A stretch of DNA of 64,000 nt from the NCBI GenBank assembly GCA_026683435.1, contig GCA_026683435.1_4866.1. One strand, 5' to 3'. Source of the stretch: a phage. Shown here in pieces: positions 17,465-58,133 of the stretch. The translations under genes and the position numbers were made by a program. The notes under the pieces were generated by a model. The model saw nothing but the letters and a program-made list of their open reading frames with translations. It was not told where the DNA came from and searched no databases. How positions within the stretch are numbered: the stretch's first letter is position 1; the number at the start of each line of letters is the position of its first letter.

Positions 17465-17565
17465 CGCGTTAACTCGAGTTAAGGGATTATTGAGGTCGTA
17501 AGATTTTTAGACCCCCTGCCAGCATATTAAAAGCGTAGTGCGTACCAGAATCCGAACAAGAGCAA

Positions 17566-17618
17566 ACAAAAAAAGAAAAGGAAACAAAAAAGAAGGGGAG
17601 CCGAAGCTCCCTTTTCTT
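17566..17618. terminator. hairpin terminator after gene 17643..17861; T-run also on plus side
   Basis: gggagc-cgaa-gctccc preceded by long A-rich tract and followed by ttttcttc. Confidence 0.6.
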
Positions 17619-17642
17619 CACGACTATATCCTCAATCGTCGA

Positions 17643-17861
17643 TTAACAGACCCACACAAGGCCGTTATTCTTTGGGCGGTCTTTAACACCGTAGGTTACT
17701 TCAACATTGTCAATCTTTTTTTCGTCGTCTTTCATTGTATTCATGAAAGCTTTGGCTTCTGCTGCAGACATTTTCAGCAGCAGGTCAATCATGTCGGGCT
17801 TACGTTTGGCTGCGGTTTCAACAACAGGTTTGATTTCAGATTTGGAGAACAGGTTGCGCAT
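17643..17861 (-). CDS. small hypothetical protein (72 aa)
   Basis: ORF with AAGGAA-type SD before ATG at 17861; lysine-rich. Confidence 0.45.
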   Translation of the reverse strand: MRNLFSKSEIKPVVETAAKRKPDMIDLLLKMSAAEAKAFMNTMKDDEKKIDNVEVTYGVKDRPKNNGLVWVC

Positions 17862-17922
17862 GGGATATTCCTTTTTTGTAGATTGCGGGTGAATTGGCGG
17901 GACTTTGCCCGCCGGGTTATTA

Positions 17923-18369
17923 TTAGTGTACTTCTTTTTCTAAACGCAGGCGATGCGTCGCTAAGGCAACCGCGCGGTTTTCGAATTCAAGACTGAATGG
18001 ACTGATTTGTGCCATGTATTTCTTTACAACATCGTCAGAGACAACTTGACGACGATAATCACGAATCATTTCAGCGAAGCTGCTAGTAGGAAGTTCGTCG
18101 TATTCGATTTCCATACCACGTCTATTGATGTAATACGAAGCAACCATGTCGTTAAACATTACGTCACCGGCTTCACCTAAAGGGAACTCGTCACGTGTGG
18201 GTTCCGTAGTCTGGAACGTGGCTTCTTTGGCGTTGGCGATAATCTCTTCGAAGTCCTCAGTAGTGAATTCGCTAGGGTCTTGTTTGTTGGCCGCCATCAC
18301 GATTAGGAAAGAAATCATAATCGGGTTTTTGCTAGCGTACTTAGTAAGTTCGTTATTCAGAATGTACAT
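17923..18369 (-). CDS. hypothetical protein (148 aa)
   Basis: ATG at 18369 preceded by AAGGAG; downstream of promoter-like element copy 1. Confidence 0.7.
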   Translation of the reverse strand: MYILNNELTKYASKNPIMISFLIVMAANKQDPSEFTTEDFEEIIANAKEATFQTTEPTRDEFPLGEAGDVMFNDMVASYYINRRGMEIEYDELPTSSFAEMIRDYRRQVVSDDVVKKYMAQISPFSLEFENRAVALATHRLRLEKEVH

Positions 18370-45125: not shown

Positions 45126-45611
45126 TTAGACGAAATGACCTTCTGCCATCGAAAGAAAAATGGGAACGCTTTCAGCGTAATGAGTTAAAAACTTTTCCTC
45201 CGGTGGCGTGTGTGACGAAATAACATTGTAGTTCGTCATACGAAAATACCGTTGGCCGTCAGCAGCAATATACCATCGGTCAATCTGGAAGCCTTGTTGG
45301 TGAAAGAATCCTAGCGCGGGAATGTTGGTCGGGTGAACACGACAGCTGATGTGTTTACGATCGGAGTTCTGCTGAAGATACTTAAGCATAAATCTGCCGA
45401 CACCGCCCCGCCGCGATTCTTCGGGCACTACCATATAGACCAAATGGCCAGGTTCCCATGCCATGATTCCCCGCACGATATCATCCTCAACAAACATCGT
45501 GAGTTTAATAGGCTCCTCGCGGATACTGTTTAAGTCGCGCACCCATTCAACCAGTTCAGGATAAACATTCGCGGGAATCTTATCCTCGACCACATTAATA
45601 ACAAGCATCAC
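45126..45611 (-). CDS. GNAT-family N-acetyltransferase
   Basis: Motif A VVPEESRRGGVGRFMLKYLQQ and ...ALGFFHQQGF. Confidence 0.65.
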   Translation of the reverse strand: MMLVINVVEDKIPANVYPELVEWVRDLNSIREEPIKLTMFVEDDIVRGIMAWEPGHLVYMVVPEESRRGGVGRFMLKYLQQNSDRKHISCRVHPTNIPALGFFHQQGFQIDRWYIAADGQRYFRMTNYNVISSHTPPEEKFLTHYAESVPIFLSMAEGHFV

Positions 45612-46246
45612 TTCTCTCCACTAAGCAGGTATCTGGCTTCTGCCAATGACAGGGACGGTTTTAACAGCATGTGTAGCGGCAGGATTGTTGAACGGTGAAA
45701 CTGTGCCGGTGTTTTTGCCAGGTGTTCCAGATAGCGATTGACCGACATTTCTTGCCAATCGATAGTAGGACGAACCCAACTTATCTGTAACCATTTCCCC
45801 AATGAGACGTCACGCTTACCGCGTGGCATAATTATACTTAACTTGTACCCGTGGTCAAACTGACGCGGCGGATGGCCTGGCTCCCAAGGAACTTCGGGAC
45901 CTAACGCATCTGCAAGAAACCCTTCTTTAATTAACACATTTCTGACGGCAGCGAATATCCGTCCACGTTGCGCGGTGATCTCTTTGACGTGTGCCATGGC
46001 ATTTAGTTTACGTTTGGTAATTGCAGCGGAAAGCGCGCTGACAAACTGCCCTTCAACATACGGGGCGTTTAAGCAGCTACGAAACGGCACTACGTAAAAC
46101 GCCTCCCACAATACTTCTTCGACTGCCGCCAATAACAACGCTTCTTTCTCAGCTGCAGTAAAATCCACAGACAGCATTTTGGTAAACGAACCTAATATAG
46201 CGCTAAACGGTAGTAGTACAGACCGTTGACGAAATTGTAATTGCAT
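45608..46246 (-). CDS. hypothetical protein (212 aa)
   Basis: ORF track; ATGA-type overlap with downstream GNAT gene. Confidence 0.6.
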   Translation of the reverse strand: MQLQFRQRSVLLPFSAILGSFTKMLSVDFTAAEKEALLLAAVEEVLWEAFYVVPFRSCLNAPYVEGQFVSALSAAITKRKLNAMAHVKEITAQRGRIFAAVRNVLIKEGFLADALGPEVPWEPGHPPRQFDHGYKLSIIMPRGKRDVSLGKWLQISWVRPTIDWQEMSVNRYLEHLAKTPAQFHRSTILPLHMLLKPSLSLAEARYLLSGEK

Positions 46247-46295: not shown

Positions 46296-46339
46296 ATAAA
46301 AAAATAAGAAGCCTCTTCTCCAGGAGGAGAAGAGGGCTT
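46296..46339 (-). terminator. hairpin terminator after gene 46342..46914
   Basis: agcctcttctcc-agga-ggagaagagggct (12-bp stem) preceded (plus) by aaaaaaataagaa. Confidence 0.7.
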
Positions 46340-46341
46340 AA

Positions 46342-46914
46342 TTACACTTTAGGTGCGGTAGTCTGTTGCTTCGCGTTGCTCTTATTCAGCTTGTATTCAA
46401 CAACCTTGGCACCAATGGCCATCGAATTGTAAGCAAGTGTCTTAATCGGCCATGTAAAGAACACGGCCTGAGCAAACAAAGGTAAGAGCGCCACAATCAG
46501 CACATCCGTTAACTCCTGTGGATAATGTAGGTGCGTGTCCCAGGCCATCGCGCCAGTAATCACCACAGTGGTCAGCACCAACAAAACGATAAGGACTTTC
46601 TGCGGACCTTTCAAATTTGGCCACAGGGTCAATAACGTTTCTTTGGCGAGCTTTTCATCCATGCTTTCTACGGCGGCTTTTGCTTGCGATTCAAACGTTT
46701 TCGCCATGTTCCCTACCTGCTCAAGGATGAGGGGGCGTAAAGAAGTAAGAATCACGTTAGCAGGTTTAGTGACATCAATTTCAACATCACTTCCCAAAGC
46801 GGTCTGGGCGGCTGTTTTTAGTCGGTTACTCTCTTCCAGGCTTAATTTATTGGTGCCCGCCTGGATAAGAACATCCAACACATCCGTCGAGGCTTCTTGC
46901 AAAGACTGCGACAT
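46342..46914 (-). CDS. membrane protein with two C-terminal TM helices (190 aa)
   Basis: Hydrophobic segments VLIVLLVLTTVVITGAMAW and VLIVALLPLFAQAVFFTWPI. Confidence 0.55.
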   Translation of the reverse strand: MSQSLQEASTDVLDVLIQAGTNKLSLEESNRLKTAAQTALGSDVEIDVTKPANVILTSLRPLILEQVGNMAKTFESQAKAAVESMDEKLAKETLLTLWPNLKGPQKVLIVLLVLTTVVITGAMAWDTHLHYPQELTDVLIVALLPLFAQAVFFTWPIKTLAYNSMAIGAKVVEYKLNKSNAKQQTTAPKV

Positions 46915-46916
46915 CG

Positions 46917-47567
46917 CTATTTCCTCCGGCGTCTTCCTTTCCGCTTACCGGCCTTAGCTTTAGGAACTTTAACCTTGGGCGGAAGAAGACTATTTAGGTT
47001 TAATAAGTTGACCCTGACGAAGATATTGCCCACCGCCACGGCATCGATACTGTGTTCATCCAATACCGATAAGTCGCACCGGGTATGGTTCGCGTAGAGT
47101 TTGGTCACCGCTTGTTGCATATGCGATTTATCTGTACCCTTTGCTTCCACACCAACGTACGACTTCACAATAATAGGATTAAACCCATGGAGATATTTTT
47201 CGGGAAACACGTCCCAAAGCGTTCGCCGCAACATCAGTTGCAACTCCACCCCAGATTCGTACGCTGAGAGCTTAGCTCTTCGCATGAACGGTGTTTCGGT
47301 AGCGACAAAAGTCGGCCTTGCCAGTTTTAAAAACTCACGAAAGCGTTCTTCTAATTCTACCAAACGCGCATCGCGTTTCCCTACGCACTCACCAAAAGAG
47401 CCATTGTGCGTAGGGTCCGCAACATGAGCCGTGCCCGCCCAGACAACTTCACCTTGAGGTTGGCCAAATTCCCAGTCGATAACCGCCATCCCAAGATGGG
47501 CAGTACCGGGGTCAACAGCCGCAATCCTCACCATACTGTCGGGTAACCTCGGCTCAGGAATCAGCAT
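46917..47567 (-). CDS. RuvC-like Holliday-junction resolvase with polybasic C-terminal tail
   Basis: IAAVDPGTAHLGMAVID (compare RuvC IGIDPGSRVTGYGV); ...ATETPF...; C-terminal DEHSIDAVAVG; tail KAKAGKRKGRRRRK. Confidence 0.55.
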   Translation of the reverse strand: MLIPEPRLPDSMVRIAAVDPGTAHLGMAVIDWEFGQPQGEVVWAGTAHVADPTHNGSFGECVGKRDARLVELEERFREFLKLARPTFVATETPFMRRAKLSAYESGVELQLMLRRTLWDVFPEKYLHGFNPIIVKSYVGVEAKGTDKSHMQQAVTKLYANHTRCDLSVLDEHSIDAVAVGNIFVRVNLLNLNSLLPPKVKVPKAKAGKRKGRRRRK

Positions 47568-48454
47568 CAGTTAGCTGTCCCTAAGAACCACGGTGCCGGC
47601 TGGCCGATACGGATGGTCAGTGACAGACGATCGTTGGTCTGTGCCAGGTTAGTGAACAGGGAGATGTAGTACAACGCCTGCACACCGATAGCTTCGTCGT
47701 AGCTGAACTGTGAACCGGTAGCCGACTCACCCGTTTCAGGGGTATCAACGCCAGAGCACAGCGCAATTTCAGAGATAATCGAACTGCGTGGCGTACCACG
47801 TAGAATCGCCGTCACGTTCATGTATTCCTGAACATCAAACTCAGTCCATGGAATCACCAGGTCTGCGCCCGATTCAACATAACGACCGTCGGGGATCTCT
47901 ACAGTGCCGTCATCGTCGTAATCGTAGTCTGGGAGTTCTTTCGGTACCGGGTTCAGTTCCGCATCGGTATAGACGAAATCTTTGACGGTTTCAACACCGT
48001 TTTCGCGAGTGATATCCAGGTCAGTGGTCTTCACTGCGCGCATGTCGATACGTTTCAGATAATACGCCCAGTAATCCCGCGCGCCGATAGTTTCACGAGT
48101 ACGGAAAGCGTACTGTTTACGTTGCTCATCAGACAAGTCATTATCCAACGTACGCAGTACCAATGGAACGCGCGAGAACATCCCTGACGCAATCGGGGAT
48201 TTCGCGACGGGAACAACGTCTGCCACAACATCAGACTGATCAACGATGTGACCACGGTTACCCACGCACATGTATCCTAAATGCGGACGTGTAGCGCCAT
48301 CGGGAACTTTCGAGGTCATGAGTTTATAAAACTCGTTCATCGTGGATTTCTGTGGGTACTGCACGTCAGCACCTGTCAATAACGCGGTCGTAAGTCGCAT
48401 CGCGTTAAGAGTCACTGTTGACAGTTTACCATCGTAAACTTTGGTGTTAGCCAT
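47567..48454 (-). CDS. structural-type hypothetical protein (295 aa), biased codon usage
   Basis: ORF track; preceded by a stand-alone N-module gene. Confidence 0.6.
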   Translation of the reverse strand: MANTKVYDGKLSTVTLNAMRLTTALLTGADVQYPQKSTMNEFYKLMTSKVPDGATRPHLGYMCVGNRGHIVDQSDVVADVVPVAKSPIASGMFSRVPLVLRTLDNDLSDEQRKQYAFRTRETIGARDYWAYYLKRIDMRAVKTTDLDITRENGVETVKDFVYTDAELNPVPKELPDYDYDDDGTVEIPDGRYVESGADLVIPWTEFDVQEYMNVTAILRGTPRSSIISEIALCSGVDTPETGESATGSQFSYDEAIGVQALYYISLFTNLAQTNDRLSLTIRIGQPAPWFLGTAN

Positions 48455-48974
48455 TTAAAAATTCTCCTGGGCGAAACCCGTCGAGTGCCCGTTTAGTTAC
48501 CAGCTGCGCCAGCTTACGGGGAGTTGGGTCAACAAAAGTAATCGCAATCGTGCCTTTGAAAGATAGATGGTGCGGGATTAAGCGCGCCTCATACGATTCC
48601 ATTTCTGGGGTAATCGGTTCAACCATGATATCGTAGGTGTCAAGCTGGAGACCCAGCTCATCGACAATATACGGAACTAATTCATGGCTCCACTCCGTTG
48701 CACCCTTCGGGACTTCAACCGTTACGCCTCTAAGTAACTTGTTTAAATCCGCGCGAGTCAGGTAAAACTCTTGGGTGCCGTGTACCCCGTTTACAAAGCG
48801 CGCTGCAACTTTAGACTCCACGCCTTTAGCGCGTCGCTCTGCTCGTGTCAGTGGCCACACCCCACGTGGGTTAAACTCGTAGTTATTTTCACTATACGAT
48901 AACTTAAAAACGTAATTGATTCTCTCAACCAGAATCTGTTTCGGGGTTTTTGATAAATCTATACGGTATCCCAT
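48447..48974 (-). CDS. stand-alone N-module protein (175 aa)
   Basis: ...TQEFYLTRADLNKLL...VDELGLQLDTYDI matches both module blocks. Confidence 0.55.
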   Translation of the reverse strand: MGYRIDLSKTPKQILVERINYVFKLSYSENNYEFNPRGVWPLTRAERRAKGVESKVAARFVNGVHGTQEFYLTRADLNKLLRGVTVEVPKGATEWSHELVPYIVDELGLQLDTYDIMVEPITPEMESYEARLIPHHLSFKGTIAITFVDPTPRKLAQLVTKRALDGFRPGEFLNG

Positions 48975-48981
48975 AAGTCTC

Positions 48982-51165
48982 TCACTTTGGTAATTGGTCT
49001 AGCCGGAAGCCATCCATGTCACGGTCGGCCACGCGCTCGGCAAGCGTCCACTCCTCAAATGACGTCCGCACACGGATAATATCAATAGGCGGCTGTACCA
49101 TATCGACCACAACATCCTGCTCGACCTTCACGCGGATACCAGGGTAGACATTCATCCGCAACTTAATACGTTGCGGGATTGCCATTTCCTTTATCACGGG
49201 AGCGACAGGGATGGGCTTATCCGTCGTCATGAATGAACTACGGCTCACACGCTGCACGTCTGTCAGAGGGTAAATGATATTTGTTGTATCGGCAGCCTCT
49301 GCGAGAATATCATCCAGAATCGGGATGACTGGGTCGGTGACATCGTAGGTGTCAGAACCCATACGTGCGGCAAAATGGACAGTATACGACGAGAGTTTCG
49401 TCATTAACCGCACCATCGCGCGTTGTATTTCAGCTTGTGAGACAGACGCACGTGTTTCCAGATTAGTGGCCACGTTTAAAGCGTCGGTGGCGATGTCCTG
49501 CCAGGTTTCCGCAGAGACTAACTCGTAATCAAAACCAAACGTTTTGAAGAACTCGTCGTAATCGCGGTAAGGTAGGTCAAGATCGCACTTATAGTCACGG
49601 TAGTGGTAGGTAAACAACATTGTGCCGGCAGCACGGTCGGCTAGCTTGTGTCGATTATACGAGTAACGGTAACGACGACGCTTCTGCACCATGATTTCGC
49701 TGATTTCATCGTACAACTCATCTGCAGACGTCAAATTACCGATAACTTCATGATGTGTGTCCGTGTAGTAGTTAATCAACGCATTAAAACGGCCGGGCCA
49801 TGAGCTTGGCAGATGCTGCTCCATCTCATCAAAACCAACCCAGCGTTTGATTAGCACACCAAACACGTTCCACACCGGGATCTTATCCAGTGCTACACCC
49901 GAATAACCTTTGAAGCTCGCATACAAGAACAGTGCCAGCAGCTCTTTTGAAGTGAGCTTTAGCGTATCCCCGTTCGTTGGGTTAAGAATTTCGTGGTAAA
50001 TCTTGTACTGTCCACGTGCCACGATATGCATCCACTCGTTGAACAAGCCATGCATAAATTCCCAACGTTCGATGGCCTCTGGGTCAATCGCCGTTACCTC
50101 AACTAACTTCGTTGGCAGGTTCGGATACTGCGTCAAGCTCAAACGCCGATCGAGGTCTTCCTGATAGTCAGGTTCGTGCACTGGGTTATTGTACGCCAGA
50201 TTGATTTCTTTCTGGATGATGTCAGTTGTGCTAACAATGTCCAGGTCACGGCCCGAGTCACGTTCAGTATAGTTAAGCGATGACTGGTAGCCGATCGGGA
50301 GTGGTGTCAGGTCATCATCACTGCCCGTCGTCGGGTCGTGAATCTGCTGGGCGACCTTATATCCAACAGCAGGCATACCCCAACCCGTCAGCAGGGTGTC
50401 AATCATCCAGGTAAAGATTTCTTCCTTACCAGAGTTACGTTCCCAGTAACGGATATTGCGATACAGTGTGAATTTCTGCTTGAGGGTCAGGTACGGCATG
50501 AACTCGTGCAGTTCTTGGTGTGAAGCCAAGAACTCGGTCACGTAGTAGGAGTGCGTTTCGGTCGTAAACTGTAACCGTTTGCGGATGTACATGATAAGCC
50601 CCGGCCACACCGGGTACTGTTGCATGTAAAAGGCCAGTACGAAACAGTCGTTGTGAACTTTCCAGCCATCGGCCATGAAACGCACATGTGCTGCACGAAT
50701 AAAGTTCTCAATATGTGTAATTAACGACGTCTCCTGCGGTTCAACTAAAGCAGGATCGTAATACAAAATTGAGCAGTCATCGACACGTATCGCATATGCA
50801 ATATCAATCGGATTGAAAGTACCGCGAATATATACTGCGTAGTCCGGATACTCGGCGATTAAGTCGTCGATATACTCCGGGTTAGAACGATATACGTTTG
50901 AGGTCTTTTTATGACGGGAGAGGTTCTGCGTCGTTAACTCTATCTGCTCTTGCGTGTCGAGTGACGTAATGTATATCGGCTTGTCGATTGCATGTCGTTT
51001 ACCTGCTAAGTGTAGGTAATACCGCCACGTCTCACGGTTCTCGGAAACGAAACCGCCGTTTTTGGTTATTGCCAGGTTCATCTGTTGTGCGATGCTCTCT
51101 GATTTGACAATCAGGGATTTCGCTAACTGGATAGCCTGGTCACGAAAAATGTTAAATCTCTGCAT
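48982..51165 (-). CDS. large hypothetical protein (about 728 aa)
   Basis: Track start 51177 is TTG; ATG at 51165 (MQRFNIF...); no nucleotide-binding motif seen. Confidence 0.7.
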   Translation of the reverse strand: MQRFNIFRDQAIQLAKSLIVKSESIAQQMNLAITKNGGFVSENRETWRYYLHLAGKRHAIDKPIYITSLDTQEQIELTTQNLSRHKKTSNVYRSNPEYIDDLIAEYPDYAVYIRGTFNPIDIAYAIRVDDCSILYYDPALVEPQETSLITHIENFIRAAHVRFMADGWKVHNDCFVLAFYMQQYPVWPGLIMYIRKRLQFTTETHSYYVTEFLASHQELHEFMPYLTLKQKFTLYRNIRYWERNSGKEEIFTWMIDTLLTGWGMPAVGYKVAQQIHDPTTGSDDDLTPLPIGYQSSLNYTERDSGRDLDIVSTTDIIQKEINLAYNNPVHEPDYQEDLDRRLSLTQYPNLPTKLVEVTAIDPEAIERWEFMHGLFNEWMHIVARGQYKIYHEILNPTNGDTLKLTSKELLALFLYASFKGYSGVALDKIPVWNVFGVLIKRWVGFDEMEQHLPSSWPGRFNALINYYTDTHHEVIGNLTSADELYDEISEIMVQKRRRYRYSYNRHKLADRAAGTMLFTYHYRDYKCDLDLPYRDYDEFFKTFGFDYELVSAETWQDIATDALNVATNLETRASVSQAEIQRAMVRLMTKLSSYTVHFAARMGSDTYDVTDPVIPILDDILAEAADTTNIIYPLTDVQRVSRSSFMTTDKPIPVAPVIKEMAIPQRIKLRMNVYPGIRVKVEQDVVVDMVQPPIDIIRVRTSFEEWTLAERVADRDMDGFRLDQLPK

Positions 51166-51176
51166 CGGAGACCCCA

Positions 51177-53921
51177 ATGGAAGATATTAGTAAATTAACG
51201 GGCGACCCCGCGGTAGCTGCCATACTGCGTAAGTCCACGAGCCCGTCGGCTCAGCAGCAACGCGGTAAGCGTGAAGATGGCGGTGTTACACCAACCCGTA
51301 CAGAACTCACGGGCATTGCGAGTAGCCGCATTCGCACCGTTAAAAATGCCGAACGTATCTTTGATGCGCTCCCTGAGTTAGAGGTCATTGTTACCATCGC
51401 GACCTCCTCGCTCCTGTCCACAAAAGATTTGATTAACACCACGCTGATTTACGACAACGTGGCTGATATCCCGATCGACCTGCGTCAGCAGTTATTGGAA
51501 CCTGTGCGTGAATTCCATGACCACACGCGTCAGTTACCCAACAAACTGTATCAGTGGATTTACGATGCACTGAAATCCAAAGGCGCGAGCCCGGTGTTGC
51601 TGATTTCAGATACCGGATTCGATGAACTCTTCGGCTTAAAGCCGTCTGTTGCAACCGAATCGTTGCGCCGTAGCCAATCCGACTTCTTTGAACGTCAGTT
51701 GGGTATCCTGGGCAAGATTGGCGGTGAAAACAAACCGAAGGTTGGTGTAGAAAGTATTCTGGGTCGTGCACGTGGAGCTGACAAGCCCACCAAGCCACAA
51801 ACCATTAAACTTAACTTTGCAGCAGCCCCTAACAGTCCGTTTAAAGCAGACGGTATGTTAGCTTCCCTGGATATCGTTATCACCGACAACCCGCGTATTA
51901 CCCTGCTACCAGAGGCTTATCGCCGTGTGGCACAGGAGAATGCTCGCACCGGCCTGTTCGGTCAGTTAGAGCAGTACGCATATGAACAACCTTCTACGCC
52001 GACAGGTGCGTCAGCGTATAACGCTGACCAGTTCACAGACAGCGAACAAGAGAAGGCAAAACTCGGTTTAATCAACATCGGCGACCTCAACGAAGCGTAC
52101 CAGAAAACGCCTGAGCAAAAGCTTTACGGCGAAGTACCGAAGATGAGTTTCTCCGATGCCAACAAAATCGAATACACGGAACGATTACTGCCAGCAGAGT
52201 CCACACTCCCACTCGTTATCGGTGACGATGTTCGTAACCCCATAGGTTATCTGGCCATCGTTGACGAAATGGGTAACTTCATTAACTCGCGTTCCACACT
52301 TTACGGTGATGCGAACTTCATGAACTACCTGAACAACGACGGTATGGTGGATTCAACAATCAACCGTGCAAATCTGGGGATGGGCAACACAACCCGAATC
52401 ACACCAGACATTGCTAACCGCTTAACAGCGCGTTATGGTGAGATTGCTGAAGACCAGCTAACCAAAGCTCTGGGTGAGGCGTTGGGTGGTGCTGAGATTA
52501 GCATGACAGTAACCGAAACGTTCAGCCGTATCATGTTAGCACGCCATCTGGCAAAACGCCACACGCAGGTTATCTATATTCCTGCGGAAAACCTTTGCTA
52601 CTTCGCCACAGACTTTGATGAAGACGGCATCGGTGTGTCTATTACCGAACGTTCGTTCGTTATCTCTACTGTCCGTATGGCGCTGCTGTTCGCTACCATG
52701 AACTCTGCGGTGTTAAACTCTGCCCGTCACATGCAGTACGACATTGAGTTGGCACCAGACGACATGAACGGTCAGAAAACAATTGACCAGCTGAAAACAG
52801 ACATCATGAACTCCTATAACCGTCGTCAACCGATGTGGGGGGACATGAACGACACCTGGGCAATGACGACAAACGCAGGTATTGCGTTTAACGTTATTGG
52901 TAACGACTACTACGGTAGTACCAAAGTGTCTGTGTCGGATACTACGCCGGATTATAAATACCCGGATAAGGATTTCGACGAAGGTCTGTTACGTCGCACT
53001 TGTCACATCGCTGGCGTTGACCCCGACCTGGTAATGACCCCCGAGAACATCGAATTCGCTTCACAGATTTTCTCTAAATCGTTACTGGTCACCCAGCAGG
53101 TTGTTAAGAAGCAAGAGATTCTCTCTAAGCCGCTGACACGTTACGTAGTTAATGGGATGTTGGCCTCTCCGTCGTTGCAATCAGCGATGATTAAAATCAT
53201 TGCAGAGTACATCAACGCTAACGGTAATGGGATGACTACTGACCAGATTACGAAAAAGGTCTCTGAGTACCTGGCTGCGTTTATCAACGGTATGAAAGTA
53301 ACCTTACCACCGCCAGACACCTCTGCAGCAGCTTCGCAGATGGAGCTGTTCGATAAACGTACGGAGTTCTTTGAGAAGCTGGCTGATCTGGTTGTAACGG
53401 ATGACATTGCTGCGCAACTCCAGCAAGAAGGCATCACGATGGACCCGAACGATCTGAAGACGATGATCAAGTCCTTCTATACGCGCAACTGGCTGCGTAA
53501 ACAAGGCATTGAAACCGACTTCTTCGATCTGGTTTACGACGATGATTCTCGTCAGGACAACATCACCATGATGACTGATGAAGCGATGGCTGCTTCGAAA
53601 ACGCTGATTCAATTGGCGAAACGTTTTACAGGTCGTCTGGAAACGTTGGCGAAAAATGCTGACCTTGACCCTAACGAATCTGCTGGCGGATTCAGCGGTG
53701 GTTTTGATGCGGGCGGTGACACCGGTGGCGGCGAGGGAGATCTCGGTGGTGGAGGTGACGATGATTTAGACCTCGATTTCGATACGGATAACGGAACCGA
53801 CGGGGATAGTACAGGGGAAACGACTGAGTCGACCGAAACCACGGAAACAACTACCGAGGGAACGGAAGGCACAGAAGGTGGTGAAGGAACTACCGACGAC
53901 AACCCAGACAACGTCCTCTAA
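51177..53921 (+). CDS. 914-aa protein with acidic low-complexity C-terminal tail; candidate portal protein (speculative)
   Basis: ATG at 51177 with GGAG SD; C-terminus DLDLDFDTDNGTDGDSTGETTESTETTETTTEGTEGTEGGEGTTDDNPDNVL; one of only two plus-strand genes. Confidence 0.65.
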   Translation: MEDISKLTGDPAVAAILRKSTSPSAQQQRGKREDGGVTPTRTELTGIASSRIRTVKNAERIFDALPELEVIVTIATSSLLSTKDLINTTLIYDNVADIPIDLRQQLLEPVREFHDHTRQLPNKLYQWIYDALKSKGASPVLLISDTGFDELFGLKPSVATESLRRSQSDFFERQLGILGKIGGENKPKVGVESILGRARGADKPTKPQTIKLNFAAAPNSPFKADGMLASLDIVITDNPRITLLPEAYRRVAQENARTGLFGQLEQYAYEQPSTPTGASAYNADQFTDSEQEKAKLGLINIGDLNEAYQKTPEQKLYGEVPKMSFSDANKIEYTERLLPAESTLPLVIGDDVRNPIGYLAIVDEMGNFINSRSTLYGDANFMNYLNNDGMVDSTINRANLGMGNTTRITPDIANRLTARYGEIAEDQLTKALGEALGGAEISMTVTETFSRIMLARHLAKRHTQVIYIPAENLCYFATDFDEDGIGVSITERSFVISTVRMALLFATMNSAVLNSARHMQYDIELAPDDMNGQKTIDQLKTDIMNSYNRRQPMWGDMNDTWAMTTNAGIAFNVIGNDYYGSTKVSVSDTTPDYKYPDKDFDEGLLRRTCHIAGVDPDLVMTPENIEFASQIFSKSLLVTQQVVKKQEILSKPLTRYVVNGMLASPSLQSAMIKIIAEYINANGNGMTTDQITKKVSEYLAAFINGMKVTLPPPDTSAAASQMELFDKRTEFFEKLADLVVTDDIAAQLQQEGITMDPNDLKTMIKSFYTRNWLRKQGIETDFFDLVYDDDSRQDNITMMTDEAMAASKTLIQLAKRFTGRLETLAKNADLDPNESAGGFSGGFDAGGDTGGGEGDLGGGGDDDLDLDFDTDNGTDGDSTGETTESTETTETTTEGTEGTEGGEGTTDDNPDNVL

Positions 53922-56354: not shown

Positions 56355-58133
56355 TTAGCGGCCGATTTTAGCAATGTCTTCTTCGGTCGGTCTGATGTAC
56401 GGGTCCAGTTTAGGATTCCGCATCATTACCAAACTTGGGTTGGTCTTCATGTACGGGTTGAGGATGTTTGCCTTAAACGGTGCCGACTTAGGAATATAGT
56501 AGACGTTACCGCATTCCAGATGCGACGCAGATGCGTGCTTAGTACGGTCGTTCAAGTTAACGGTCTTGCCTCCTTTCTTCGAACGCTTAGCATCGGTTTC
56601 GGTTTGACCGATGGCGTGCGTAGACACTGCCAATACCATTGATTCTGTAGAGGCATTGAAGAAACTGATACCGCCGTTGCTCGTAATGGTGCGCATCACC
56701 AGATTGAGCACGATCTGTTTGTTCAGTGCGTCTCGAATAGACTTCGCCGCTGTCTCTGGAGTCCGATGTTCCAGCTGCCCCAGTTTCCAACGTATTTTCG
56801 AGATCGTTGTGGTAAAGCCGCGTTGACCCAACAGTAAATAATCGGTTACCGTGAGACGTTTTCCGTACATAGACGGAATATCATCTTGTTTGGTAAGACG
56901 AGTACGCACCATCAGCTGCGTGGTGTACCAGAGGAAATCAAACATATCCAAATCATCAGGGATGGACGGATCGTTTGCCATCAGCTCACCACGGAAGGTG
57001 CTGTTGACATAGCGTTCGCATTCCTGGAAGTGGCTGTCCATACTGCGACTCAGTTCGATATCCGAGGGCTTCAGTCCGCGAATACTACGACCCAACACTT
57101 CGCGCCAGGAGGCTGCAGAGTTGAGGTTCGCAATATCTTCGTCCATTGCCATTTCGTTAATCTGTGTAAACAGCCCCGGCAGTGTTGGTGCACGACCGTT
57201 CTTACTGTTCTGTTTACCTGCGTAGTAGTGCGCTGCTTTGAAGAACGCAGCAGTCGCTACCAGCAACAGATGTTCATTCTGATCCCAACGCCCTGCATCG
57301 GTGTTAGGCATATCTTCACGTTTAACCAACAGTACGTACTGGATGGTCTTCGCGAGTTGTGGCTCACCGGACTGAATCACCACATACTTCGTTAAGTCCA
57401 CATCACGTACTTTAATCGCTGGCCAAATCGCCACATCAACACCCGCATAACGCTTCACAGCTTGTTTAAAGCCGTAGCGCCCGAAGAGCCAATACATCAA
57501 CGGCTTCTCATCGGTGTCGTGTCCAATCTGTCCGGTTGAGACAAACAGATTCGATGTACCTGGCAAGAACAGCTGCTCAGGGCGACCATTCACCAGAATC
57601 TTCGTTGGTTTCTTACAGAACTTGATAGACACCTTGCGGGTGAAGTCAAAGTTAATAAAGATACCACCGTGCTCACGACAAATACCAGGTTGGTGGATTA
57701 CAGGTGCTACGTGGTACGTTGTACCGTAGTAGTTCATTAAGCCGCCACGACGAATAAACGGCAGGCTCATTGGTCGTTGCACCGGGCGAGGATCGCCTGG
57801 AACTCGGAACGAGGCCATTACCATATACGTGTCAGTGGATGAGATGTTAATAATTGACCGGCCACGATTGTTTCGTGAATTGTTATCCGACTTCGATAAC
57901 TTAAAGATAAAAGCTTCAAACGGGGACATCTGACGGCAGCCTAACACCGTTAACCCTTCTGGTAATTTCGGGTTATCGATTTCATCATACGTCAACTCAC
58001 GACGTAGAATGGTTGCCACACGATCATGTATCCCGTCTTTAGCTTGTGTGTACCCAACTCCTTCTGCAATTGCACGATTAAAAGGCACTATTTCGCCTGC
58101 CTCTTTAATCTTCCTAATCGCATCTTTAAACAC
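56355..58133 (-). CDS. large hypothetical protein (592 aa)
   Basis: ORF track; no recognisable motif. Confidence 0.7.
   Translation of the reverse strand: MFKDAIRKIKEAGEIVPFNRAIAEGVGYTQAKDGIHDRVATILRRELTYDEIDNPKLPEGLTVLGCRQMSPFEAFIFKLSKSDNNSRNNRGRSIINISSTDTYMVMASFRVPGDPRPVQRPMSLPFIRRGGLMNYYGTTYHVAPVIHQPGICREHGGIFINFDFTRKVSIKFCKKPTKILVNGRPEQLFLPGTSNLFVSTGQIGHDTDEKPLMYWLFGRYGFKQAVKRYAGVDVAIWPAIKVRDVDLTKYVVIQSGEPQLAKTIQYVLLVKREDMPNTDAGRWDQNEHLLLVATAAFFKAAHYYAGKQNSKNGRAPTLPGLFTQINEMAMDEDIANLNSAASWREVLGRSIRGLKPSDIELSRSMDSHFQECERYVNSTFRGELMANDPSIPDDLDMFDFLWYTTQLMVRTRLTKQDDIPSMYGKRLTVTDYLLLGQRGFTTTISKIRWKLGQLEHRTPETAAKSIRDALNKQIVLNLVMRTITSNGGISFFNASTESMVLAVSTHAIGQTETDAKRSKKGGKTVNLNDRTKHASASHLECGNVYYIPKSAPFKANILNPYMKTNPSLVMMRNPKLDPYIRPTEEDIAKIGR

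Follow-up and report, generated by a model that had tools for sequence, protein, structure and literature searches.

The question raised by this locus is what a RuvC-like junction resolvase with a strongly basic C-terminus does at the edge of a block of structural genes in a nucleus-forming phage. The window analysed here (a 64,000-nucleotide stretch of phage DNA) carries the coding sequence at 46917..47567 on the minus strand, with an ATG start and a product of 216 aa that ends in KAKAGKRKGRRRRK (also given as ...PPKVKVPKAKAGKRKGRRRRK). The first-pass annotation had proposed that this protein is a RuvC-like resolvase co-transcribed with large structural-type genes and positioned with packaging/structural genes, that it may debranch DNA before or during packaging, and that the basic tail confers extra nucleic-acid affinity. 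On the evidence set out below we favour, at a probability of roughly 0.65, a reading in which the protein is an active, late, RuvC-type debranching resolvase whose tail serves as a tether to duplex DNA.

Results

At 97-98.5% nucleotide identity, the window belongs to a Seoulvirus, one of the SPN3US-like jumbo phages of Salmonella that form a nucleus, and ORF 46917..47567 is a real, intact gene equivalent to SPN3US gp85 (SPN3US_0085, YP_009153379.1); antisense ORFs at 46897..47427 are without support. SPN3US gp85 is the Chimalliviridae core gene cg40, with homologues in phiKZ gp140, 201phi2-1 gp225, Goslar gp010 and RAY gp012, and the cg40 table in the supplement of Prichard 2023, in which it is a core gene of nucleus-forming phages, includes phiKZ gp140, Goslar gp010 and RAY gp012. 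A blastp search with the window protein recovered phiKZ gp140 at E=1e-14, 201phi2-1 gp225 at E=5e-18 and Goslar gp010 at E=6e-19, and homologues were found in 135 phage records with this query and in 228 with a D6 query; at E<=1e-3 the whole family comprises 2761 representatives. A cg40-type RuvC is carried by nearly all nucleus-forming jumbo phages and is a fairly ordinary gene; nor is the resolvase new, as several records already carry a RuvC-like resolvase annotation and a published survey (PMC7824862) covers the gene. Literature searches on gp85 or any chimallivirus homologue found no biochemical, genetic, localisation or expression data, those on SPN3US gp84/gp85, phiKZ gp140 and characterised jumbo-phage RuvC enzymes found nothing specific, and the text of the PCH45 Tn-seq study does not name a gp85 homologue.

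The RuvC label is weak by Pfam alone, and becomes strong once family profiles, solved structures and the predicted fold are taken together. The Pfam RuvC model (PF02075) matches at E=0.035 with 14.4 bits, below its gathering score of 22.2, and the NCBIfam RuvC model NF000711 at E=3e-5 with 23.9 bits, below its cut-off of 163; across the family, 7 of 17 members match Pfam RuvC at E<=0.1 (best E=1.8e-7). The protein does match PHROG 159, 'RuvC-like Holliday junction resolvase', at E=1.9e-38, and a profile of 27 homologues searched against the PDB returned RuvC chains as its sole matches (E=5e-5). With scores below the Pfam and NCBIfam thresholds, gp85 is a member of a divergent phage branch and not a bacterial RuvC equivalog.

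In the AlphaFold2 monomer model (pLDDT 87.6, pTM 0.84), gp85 adopts an RNase H-like fold with the RuvC topology. The predicted catalytic core spans residues 12-186 (47010..47534, minus strand) and runs in the order strand, strand, strand, helix, strand, helix, strand, followed by helices; a long helix at residues 100-120 lies at the place of the RuvC dimer-interface helix. When this model was compared with the PDB by Foldseek, the best 12 matches were all bacterial RuvC (E=7e-10 to 8e-8, TMt 0.66-0.79), with E. coli RuvC (1hjr) at a TMt of 0.79. The E. coli, T. thermophilus, D. radiodurans and P. aeruginosa enzymes came first, followed by MOC1, bIL67 RuvC, Ydc2 and the poxvirus resolvases, and the best matches in BFVD were phage Holliday junction resolvases.

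Alignment likewise places the four metal-binding catalytic positions of RuvC (D, E, D/H, D) in gp85. Three alignments were used, A1 with 27 sequences, A2 with 17 and A3 with 25, the last descending to 19% identity, such that the comparison reaches phiKZ- and EL-like homologues at 19-25% identity. The putative first carboxylate, D19 of a VDPG motif (codon 47511..47513, minus strand), aligns to the DPG aspartate of T. thermophilus and D. radiodurans RuvC and is invariant in A1 and A3 and present in 16 of the 17 sequences of A2, the EL gp108 row being the lone exception. The second, E91 of a T-E-T-P-F motif (47295..47297, minus strand), is invariant in all three alignments and falls on the E of 'AVEEQF' in T. 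thermophilus and 'AIEDQI' in D. radiodurans; together with F94 it forms the ExxF pattern of bacterial RuvC. The third and fourth positions (HxxD) correspond to H172-S-I-D175 within L-D-E-H-S-I-D-A (47043..47054, minus strand), where D170, H172 and D175 do not vary in any of the three alignments and align to 'nnHaaDAlA' of D. radiodurans RuvC (7w8d). The loss of the catalytic carboxylates had been named beforehand as the observation that would count against a RuvC-type nuclease; D19, E91, H172 and D175 are all kept, the solved RuvC structures can be aligned, and bacterial RuvC enzymes are the first fold matches, and so the earlier assignment is borne out.

The surroundings of the gene bear on when it is likely to be expressed. 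It is the fourth of five tightly packed genes on the minus strand. The block opens with gp82 (48982..51165; 727 aa from an ATG at 51165), a homologue of the phiKZ gp128 baseplate wedge (29% identity, E=3e-89) from which the divergent portal gene is separated by 11 nt. The end of gp82 lies 7 nt before position 48974, where gp83 begins (48447..48974; 175 aa, DUF7941). The gp83 product is a virion module peculiar to chimalliviruses and is placed in the peripheral baseplate and fibres. The gp83 gene overlaps by 8 nt with gp84 (47567..48454; 295 aa, DUF7208), a homologue of the phiKZ gp139 peripheral baseplate band that lies directly upstream of gp85. Base 47567 is common to the gp84 stop codon and the gp85 ATG (5'-TGATG-3' on the minus strand), and 2 nt after the gp85 stop begins gp86 (46342..46914), which encodes a 190-aa protein with two predicted C-terminal transmembrane helices and is the last gene of the block. 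Directly after gp86, a consensus scan identified a terminator-like hairpin on the minus strand at 46312..46335 (10-bp stem with 6 G-C pairs, loop of 4, T-rich tail), which is likely the end of the transcription unit. As this is the sole strong minus-strand terminator-like hairpin in the gp82-gp86 stretch and it immediately follows gp86, a single transcription unit from gp82 to gp86 is plausible; because the phage uses its own RNA polymerases, a scan for sigma-70 promoters and terminators says little about real transcription. Rfam gave zero matches on either strand of the window, and repeats within the gp85 stretch were limited to short ones at chance level, with no tandem DNA repeat.

Of the suggestion that the resolvase is co-transcribed with structural genes and positioned with packaging genes, the first half stands, given the TGATG overlap, the common terminator and the virion genes upstream, which probably make one unit; the second half does not. 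The products of gp82-gp84 are baseplate proteins and not packaging or head proteins, the portal is transcribed divergently, and the large terminase lies ~150 kb from gp85 in SPN3US. A link to packaging by gene position was therefore rejected, and the position argues for late timing. The arrangement itself is conserved, in that the gp139-type (DUF7208) baseplate gene is immediately followed by the resolvase gene in the window, SPN3US, pVa-21, HHBS36_1, Noxifer, phiKZ and 201phi2-1, as is typical of cg40, and with one gene inserted between the two in EL and one metagenomic contig. In most lineages the gene sits inside the late structural and lysis block. In Goslar the order is broken and the resolvase gene follows an SbcC-like gene, and so the association with structural genes is not universal.

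Beyond the last helix of the core, a conserved Leu/Pro-rich linker (N-L-L-N-L-N-S-L-L-P-P, residues 187-197; 46977..47009, minus strand) leads into the polybasic C-terminal tail KVKVPKAKAGKRKGRRRRK (residues 198-216; 46920..46976, minus strand), which is predicted to be disordered. In the AlphaFold2 model the pLDDT falls from ~76 to 61 across the linker and is 53-61 in the tail, and the net charge of about +12 in the tail is set beside a core of -5. In the linker, L194 does not vary across the SPN3US clade. All homologues from the SPN3US/Erwinia/pVa-21 clade bear a tail, 27-36 aa long with a net charge of +11 to +15; all full-length homologues of 43 to 98% identity have 11-16 K/R in their last 25 residues while the residue order shifts, and the composition is kept down to 35% identity with K and R interchanging freely. 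This pattern indicates, as judged from the homologues, that the tail is under selection for its composition. Only two annotated CDSs in the whole 240-kb SPN3US genome end in such a basic run, gp85 and the SF2 helicase, whose poly-Arg C-terminus is conserved in the SPN3US/Erwinia clade; given this rarity and the K/R count kept among homologues, the tail is no chance feature.

Most family members are without a tail. In phiKZ, 201phi2-1, Noxifer and EL the protein stops 1-9 residues past the last helix, and Goslar has a short, weakly basic C-terminal extension only. On a tree of the core domain, tail-bearing proteins fall in about seven separate lineages, which include Pseudomonas phages D6 and Psa21 and the P0157 group. 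Since most homologues do without the tail, and have cores that are not more basic, the basic function does not require it. Charge compensation, by which tail-less homologues would have more basic cores, was not seen, the cores being acidic in all clades. Docking of the tail on the strongly acidic portal C-terminus was also rejected; the last 80 aa of the window portal have a net charge of -24, and the phiKZ portal gp129 ends in the same kind of acidic tail (net -27), yet phiKZ gp140 is tail-less. Likewise rejected was a system-wide polybasic signal on nuclear proteins, with only the two SPN3US CDSs so endowed and the Psa21 and Phabio helicases without a tail although the Psa21 RuvC has one. 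Apart from the recurrence of the tail, gp85 offers nothing new.

Discussion

The direct basis for a functional proposal consists of the fold, the catalytic residues, the gene order and the conservation and recurrence of the tail. From these, gp85 would be an active, metal-dependent RuvC-type junction endonuclease, most likely a homodimer that works independently of RuvAB; jumbo-phage RuvC has been noted not to be coupled to a RuvB-like ATPase (PMC7824862), and no ruvA or ruvB is annotated in the SPN3US genome tables. Its substrates would be Holliday junctions and other branches arising from recombination-dependent replication, cut in concatemeric phage DNA presumably inside the phage nucleus, and the removal of these branches would allow the 240-kb genome to thread into capsids. 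It would probably be transcribed late, as one unit with baseplate genes gp82-gp84 and the membrane protein gene gp86, and this placement may hold back debranching until packaging time. If so, gp85 clears branches from the replicated genome of a nucleus-forming jumbo phage before packaging, an essential-type late function that could be a target of host defences or of phage engineering. Debranching is what one expects a phage resolvase to do, and the gene was already annotated; what is modestly new is evolutionary, namely the addition of a disordered, ~30-residue tail of net +12 to an acidic RuvC core in about seven lineages.

The step from a junction nuclease to debranching before packaging is drawn by analogy with T4 endonuclease VII, T7 endonuclease I and bIL67 RuvC. 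T4 endonuclease VII (gp49), a late phage resolvase needed for DNA debranching before and during packaging, has a fold unrelated to that of gp85. Endonuclease VII-like and RuvC-like resolvases are nearly complementary in their distribution among jumbo phages (PMC7824862). The RuvC of Lactococcus phage bIL67 is a debranching enzyme that acts before packaging and independently of RuvAB (PMC3864405); it shares the phage-encoded RuvC fold with gp85 but is a more distant match (4KTW; E=4e-5, TMt 0.67), and a polybasic tail comparable to that of gp85 is not described for it in PMC3864405. The poxvirus A22-type resolvases (fowlpox 6P7B, canarypox 5E6F), MOC1 and Ydc2 are also RuvC-fold, RuvAB-independent enzymes, with concatemers as the substrates in poxviruses, although they are weaker structural matches (E=1e-5 to 1e-4) with other insertions and other hosts. 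Bacterial RuvC proteins (E. coli 1HJR, T. thermophilus 4LD0/6S16, D. radiodurans 7W8D; PF02075) remain the best structural matches, with TM-scores of 0.70-0.79 normalised to the target, and their catalytic D, E, H and D and ExxF motif align with gp85. The phage protein differs from them in its identity (16-22%), in ~12 extra N-terminal residues and in an insertion after strand 3, as well as in its acidic core and polybasic tail, and a RuvA or RuvB partner is not reported for jumbo-phage RuvC (PMC7824862). Closest to the window protein are the cg40/PHROG 159 homologues, which have the same D/E/H/D positions in a core of ~186 aa and are mostly encoded directly after the gp139-type baseplate gene; those of phiKZ, 201phi2-1, Noxifer and EL differ in being tail-less, whereas every member of the clade of the window protein is tailed.

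That the enzyme mainly serves another purpose than debranching for packaging is unlikely. It might process recombination intermediates during replication and repair with SbcCD-like and UvsX/DprA-like proteins, or attack host or competitor DNA. The Goslar gene order fits the former role, as does the fact that SPN3US encodes SbcD-like, SMC/SbcC-like and DprA-like proteins, and phage RuvC enzymes are able to cleave forks and other branched DNA (PMC3864405). Such roles overlap with debranching without ruling it out, however, and the gene lies mostly in the late structural and lysis block, away from replication genes. An attack on host DNA would have to contend with the location of that DNA outside the phage nucleus.

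Within the preferred reading of a packaging-time debranching enzyme, the 19-residue tail on its Leu/Pro linker may act as a disordered DNA tether beside the net-acidic core; with one tail per subunit, the dimer could be kept on duplex DNA and conduct a one-dimensional search for rare junctions. The notion that the tail lends extra nucleic-acid affinity is consistent with what we observe, a conserved, predicted-disordered and strongly cationic appendage. T7 endonuclease I (gene 3) offers a functional model, as a phage junction resolver with a short, disordered, basic terminal peptide. The enzyme needs this N-terminal peptide of 16 aa to stay long on dsDNA and to diffuse along it in one dimension in the search for junctions (PMC9547003), whereas the gp85 tail is C-terminal, and the analogy is mechanistic only. 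The fold of T7 endonuclease I, a restriction-endonuclease-like, domain-swapped dimer, is unrelated to RuvC. By this analogy, we consider it about an even chance that the tail is a 'DNA sled', evolved more than once, with which a RuvAB-less resolvase scans very long concatemers. In any case, the recurrent tails, with the similar helicase tail of one clade, provide a natural experiment on how basic terminal peptides tune the target search of DNA enzymes.

It is quite improbable, in our estimation, that the tail is mainly a localisation device, by which the resolvase (and, within this clade, the SF2 helicase too) would be imported into or retained in the phage nucleus in the manner of an NLS, for instance by binding import factors or the chimallin shell, which is acidic. 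This is a chimallivirus, whose resolvase must reach nucleus-enclosed DNA, two DNA enzymes of the SPN3US/Erwinia clade have conserved poly-Arg C-termini, and the tail, gained several times over, looks like a classical basic NLS; furthermore, import has been studied in phiKZ, PhiPA3 and Goslar only, where the RuvC homologues are without a comparable tail (none in phiKZ, short and weakly basic in Goslar). Against this, cargo is reported to be chosen through folded surface patches and not terminal signals (reviews PMC13282480, PMC12908238), and the restriction of tails to two annotated SPN3US CDSs leaves the polymerases, nvRNAP subunits and other nuclear proteins tail-less. The Psa21 RuvC is tailed and its helicase is not, and in most chimalliviruses a tail-less homologue is imported anyway. 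A narrower form, in which the tail, acquired by convergence, is a targeting signal specific to its cargo (the resolvase, and the SF2 helicase in the SPN3US/Erwinia clade), we judge very improbable; were it true, it would be without precedent as a terminal, transferable signal for import or retention, only folded surface patches having been reported so far.

There is very little to recommend an origin of the tail in nucleotide-level constraint or drift, whether as purine-rich Arg/Lys/Gly codons that supply the gp86 ribosome-binding site or as a low-complexity run expanded by slippage. The last tail codons, AGA CGC CGG AGG AAA, do hold a Shine-Dalgarno-like GGAGGA 8 nt before the gp86 ATG, across a gp85-gp86 gap of 2 nt, and the tails of homologues differ in length and residue order. 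A ribosome-binding site takes about 6 nt, however, and not 57; homologues across 35-98% identity keep the charge (+11 to +15) and the length (27-36 aa) as K and R swap freely, similar tails occur in lineages with other downstream genes (D6/Psa21 and the P0157 group), and slippage finds no tandem DNA repeat in the gp85 stretch. Last, although the gene lies among virion genes, polybasic tails can bind packaged DNA and SPN3US heads contain many ejected proteins (PMC10052503), it is barely credible that gp85 is a virion component packaged with the DNA through its tail and delivered to the next host, as 201phi2-1 gp225 went undetected by mass spectrometry of virions in which the flanking gp224 and gp226-228 were detected, gp85 is unmentioned in the SPN3US virion proteomics text and supplementary file, and its homologue is absent from the text of the phiKZ structural atlas; the 201phi2-1 mass spectrometry and the SPN3US proteomics text thus give no support to a virion identity. 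One other polybasic ORF in the window, at 17538..17996 on the plus strand, lies antisense and between minus-strand genes and was treated as spurious.

Identity of the RuvC-like protein

The RuvC-like open reading frame (46917..47567, minus strand) begins with ATG and encodes 216 residues ending in ...LLPPKVKVPKAKAGKRKGRRRRK, exactly as the first-pass annotation had described it. The surrounding 10 kb is 97-98.5% identical to the Seoulvirus Salmonella jumbo phages (SPN3US, the SPFM and SPLA phages, SEGD1). SPN3US-like phages are nucleus-forming chimalliviruses. The SPN3US counterpart, SPN3US_0085 (gp85), is recorded as a 'hypothetical protein', and the same gene is labelled 'RuvC-like Holliday junction resolvase' or 'ruvC' in SPLA1a, SPLA3, SPFM2 and others; the supplement of the core-genome paper (Prichard 2023) lists Goslar gp010, phiKZ gp140 and RAY gp012 as Chimalliviridae core gene cg40, again as 'hypothetical'. 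The gene has thus been annotated and covered by surveys before and offers little that is new in itself, and the literature searched apparently holds no biochemical characterisation of any chimallivirus RuvC homologue. Several SPFM phage and E. coli records (P0047, P0050-P0054, P0023) carry scrambled or truncated versions in which 'IAAVDPGTAHLGMAV' fragments recur and the C-termini are wrong; these appear to stem from frameshifts or misassembly of the deposited sequences and not from biological variation.

By Pfam alone the RuvC assignment is weak (PF02075, E=0.035, with 14.4 bits where the gathering score is 22.2), although the family model does match 7 of 17 diverse family members (best E=1.8e-7); the NCBIfam RuvC model gives E=3e-5, far under its equivalog cut-off. 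The assignment nevertheless stands, as PHROG 159 (E=1.9e-38), a profile of 27 homologues that retrieves only RuvC chains from the PDB sequences (E=5e-5) and the predicted fold all agree. AlphaFold2 models the protein with confidence (pLDDT 87.6, pTM 0.84). When Foldseek compares this model with the PDB, bacterial RuvC structures take the first 12 places (E=7e-10 to 8e-8; TMt 0.79 for E. coli 1HJR), followed by MOC1, phage bIL67 RuvC, Ydc2, RuvX and poxvirus resolvases; in BFVD the best matches are phage Holliday junction resolvases.

The first-pass annotation had held its assignment open to refutation should the catalytic carboxylates prove not to be conserved on alignment with RuvC, and they are conserved. 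D19 (VDPG) and E91 (TETPF), together with H172 and D175 (both in LDEHSIDA), are invariant among 27 close homologues of 43-98% identity and in a 25-sequence alignment reaching down to 19% identity. HMMER alignments with the solved T. thermophilus and D. radiodurans RuvCs match them to the aspartate of DPG, the glutamate of 'AVEEQF' and the 'H..DA' motif. A further alignment of 17 sequences, which includes phiKZ gp140, 201phi2-1 gp225, Noxifer, Goslar and EL gp108, keeps E91, H172 and D175 throughout and lacks D19 only in the EL row, where the protein as annotated has no residues opposite this N-terminal region. Annotated EL gp108 (AJ697969.1 114985..115509; locus L010, 6548..7072) is without the N-terminal strand and DPG aspartate while retaining E, H and D; either the wrong start codon was annotated or this gene is degenerate in EL. 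PhiKZ gp140 (AF399011.1 143908..144471; locus L008, 5843..6406) clearly belongs among the RuvC-like homologues and keeps the catalytic E, H and D. A survey has reported RuvC to be displaced by RusA in phiKZ-like phages (PMC7824862); these phages may have both enzymes, or the survey may have overlooked gp140.

Taken together, the profile, fold and catalytic-residue evidence places the protein, as judged from sequence and model, in a divergent branch of the RuvC fold found in phages, its predicted active site intact, and does not make it an equivalog of bacterial RuvC. T4 endonuclease VII and T7 endonuclease I are established to clear branches ahead of packaging. The RuvC of phage bIL67 likewise removes branches before packaging (PMC3864405). 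Given these precedents, the fold, the active site and the core-gene status, it is reasonable to postulate that the enzyme would work as a dimeric junction endonuclease without RuvAB, and that its substrate would be the branched, concatemeric DNA inside the phage nucleus.

A recurrent polybasic tail

The polybasic C-terminus remarked upon in the first-pass annotation is real, and its composition is kept across the clade: the last 25 residues hold 11-16 K/R in all full-length homologues of 43-98% identity, in varying order and preceded by a conserved LLNLNSLLPP linker. The pVa-21 homologue (35% identity) ends in KKKKKRGGRRRRKKGKKG, the extension in Goslar is short and only weakly basic (...RNGKVGTKRR, net +2), and the phiKZ, 201phi2-1, HHBS36_1, Noxifer and EL homologues have no tail. 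Profile searching recovered a second tailed group, comprising Pseudomonas phages D6, Psa21 and RVTF4 and metagenomic relatives (...PRVMPAEPVKKIKVKKERKKRRRGKRR), which nests among tail-less phiKZ/PhiPA3-like sequences; the PhiPA3 homologue, at 65% identity, is tail-less. An exhaustive search of 50%-identity representatives yielded 2761 proteins at E<=1e-3, and about 17 of 146 new top representatives are basic-tailed, their linkers being unrelated. When 179 core domains were placed on a neighbour-joining tree, the tailed sequences (net >= +6) fell into seven separate groups, with seven state changes by Fitch parsimony; the tree is rough, being distance-based and midpoint-rooted, and two or three singletons are weak, yet on these sequences a single origin can be excluded. 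This apparent repeated gain on a core gene is a small new detail.

The tails are 27-36 residues long, net +11 to +15, with K and R about equal and about 11% Pro, and are predicted to be disordered (pLDDT 53-61). In every clade the catalytic core carries a net negative charge (mean -5 to -8), and tail-less homologues do not have cores that are any more basic. We postulate that the tail would anchor an otherwise acidic enzyme on duplex DNA and aid a one-dimensional search. T7 endonuclease I offers a direct precedent for such a tether, as loss of its basic, disordered 16-residue N-terminal peptide shortens residence on dsDNA by a factor of 10 or more and does away with facilitated diffusion, leaving random collision as the only way to a junction (PMC9547003). 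A generic DNA-affinity role also fits the conserved poly-Arg C-terminus of a second DNA enzyme, the SF2 helicase of the SPN3US/Erwinia clade (...KGVSRRRRRR in SPN3US and Kwan, ...GRRGRRR in Derbicus). The helicase gene lies outside the window (NC_027402.1 33403..35109; locus L011); a Ser/Pro-rich linker is conserved before the poly-Arg, and this C-terminal stretch runs about 110 nt past the annotated start of the following gene. The Psa21 and Phabio helicases lack this linker and poly-Arg end.

The tail could instead be an NLS-like signal for nuclear import or retention. However, reviews report import via folded surface patches and not via terminal signals (PMC13282480, PMC12908238), comparable tails occur on only two SPN3US coding sequences, and Psa21 pairs a tailed RuvC with a tail-less helicase, so we consider this reading improbable. 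Still less probable is that the tail is a by-product of nucleotide-level constraint: a GGAGGA Shine-Dalgarno sequence for the next gene, gp86, does sit in the last tail codons, but it accounts for 6 nt and not for a tail of 19-30 residues selected for composition.

Genomic context and timing

The gene is tightly packed with its neighbours, all on the minus strand. The TGA of gp84 (47567..48454) and the ATG of the RuvC-like frame share base 47567 (5'-TGATG-3' in the raw sequence), gp83 (48447..48974) overlaps gp84 by 8 nt, gp82 (48982..51165) stops 7 nt short of gp83, and the 190-residue gp86 (46342..46914) begins 2 nt past the RuvC stop. A consensus scan places the sole strong terminator-like hairpin on this strand of the stretch at 46335..46312, right after gp86. 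The tight spacing and single hairpin make a five-gene transcription unit plausible, as judged only from spacing and a consensus scan in a phage that uses its own RNA polymerases. The portal gene gp81 (51177..53921, plus strand; phiKZ gp129 homologue) diverges from gp82 across 11 nt (51166..51176), so each promoter must sit within the coding region of the other gene or else well upstream. ORF calling takes gp82 back to a TTG at 51177, the annotated ATG being at 51165.

The structural neighbours supposed by the first-pass annotation are borne out, specifically as baseplate genes, while the packaging context is not: the portal is divergent, and the SPN3US large terminase lies ~150 kb away. The gp84 protein (DUF7208) is a homologue of phiKZ gp139 (E=1e-36), whose dimers, in the phiKZ cryo-EM atlas, form a band in the outer peripheral baseplate, touching the wedge protein gp128 (PMC13250141); gp82 is a homologue of gp128 itself (29% identity over 640 residues, E=3e-89), and gp83 belongs to DUF7941, a chimallivirus-only module assigned to peripheral baseplate and fibres. 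The order gp139-type, RuvC-like, small membrane protein is kept in SPN3US, Vibrio phage pVa-21, HHBS36_1, Noxifer, phiKZ and 201phi2-1, and, with one extra gene inserted, in EL and one metagenomic contig; in Goslar, the exception, the RuvC gene follows an SbcC-like gene.

Virion mass spectrometry of 201phi2-1 detected gp224 and gp226-228 and did not detect gp225, the RuvC homologue. Since the flanking products are present, this is a non-virion gene within a late structural and lysis block, and packaging of the protein into virions via its tail, which nothing supports, is the least credible reading of all. What the gene's position favours is late timing, not physical coupling to the packaging motor; expression late in infection, together with the baseplate genes, would limit debranching to the packaging phase.

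Docking of the RuvC tail on an acidic portal tail was rejected, as phiKZ has the latter and no basic RuvC tail. The last 80 residues of gp81 (53680..53921, plus strand) are Gly/Asp/Glu/Thr-rich and acidic (net -24), and phiKZ gp129 has an equivalent tail (net -27); from these sequences it appears to be a general chimallivirus feature.

Like pVa-21 gp021, gp86 (PHROG 8722) has two predicted C-terminal transmembrane helices. The same slot in phiKZ, Noxifer, HHBS36_1 and 201phi2-1 is taken by a protein that is not homologous to gp86 and has its transmembrane helix at the N-terminus; it is annotated 'Rz-like spanin', yet it was detected among the virion proteins of 201phi2-1. Possibly gp86 stands in for this protein here, as a lysis or membrane protein. 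A GNAT acetyltransferase gene (45126..45611, minus strand) lies 1.3 kb downstream of the block, beyond 45608..46246, and the SPN3US annotation holds four more acetyltransferase genes (SPN3US coordinates): 90495..90959 and 95846..96844, both inside the span of the window; 56363..57118, just past its end; and 172536..173024, far outside.
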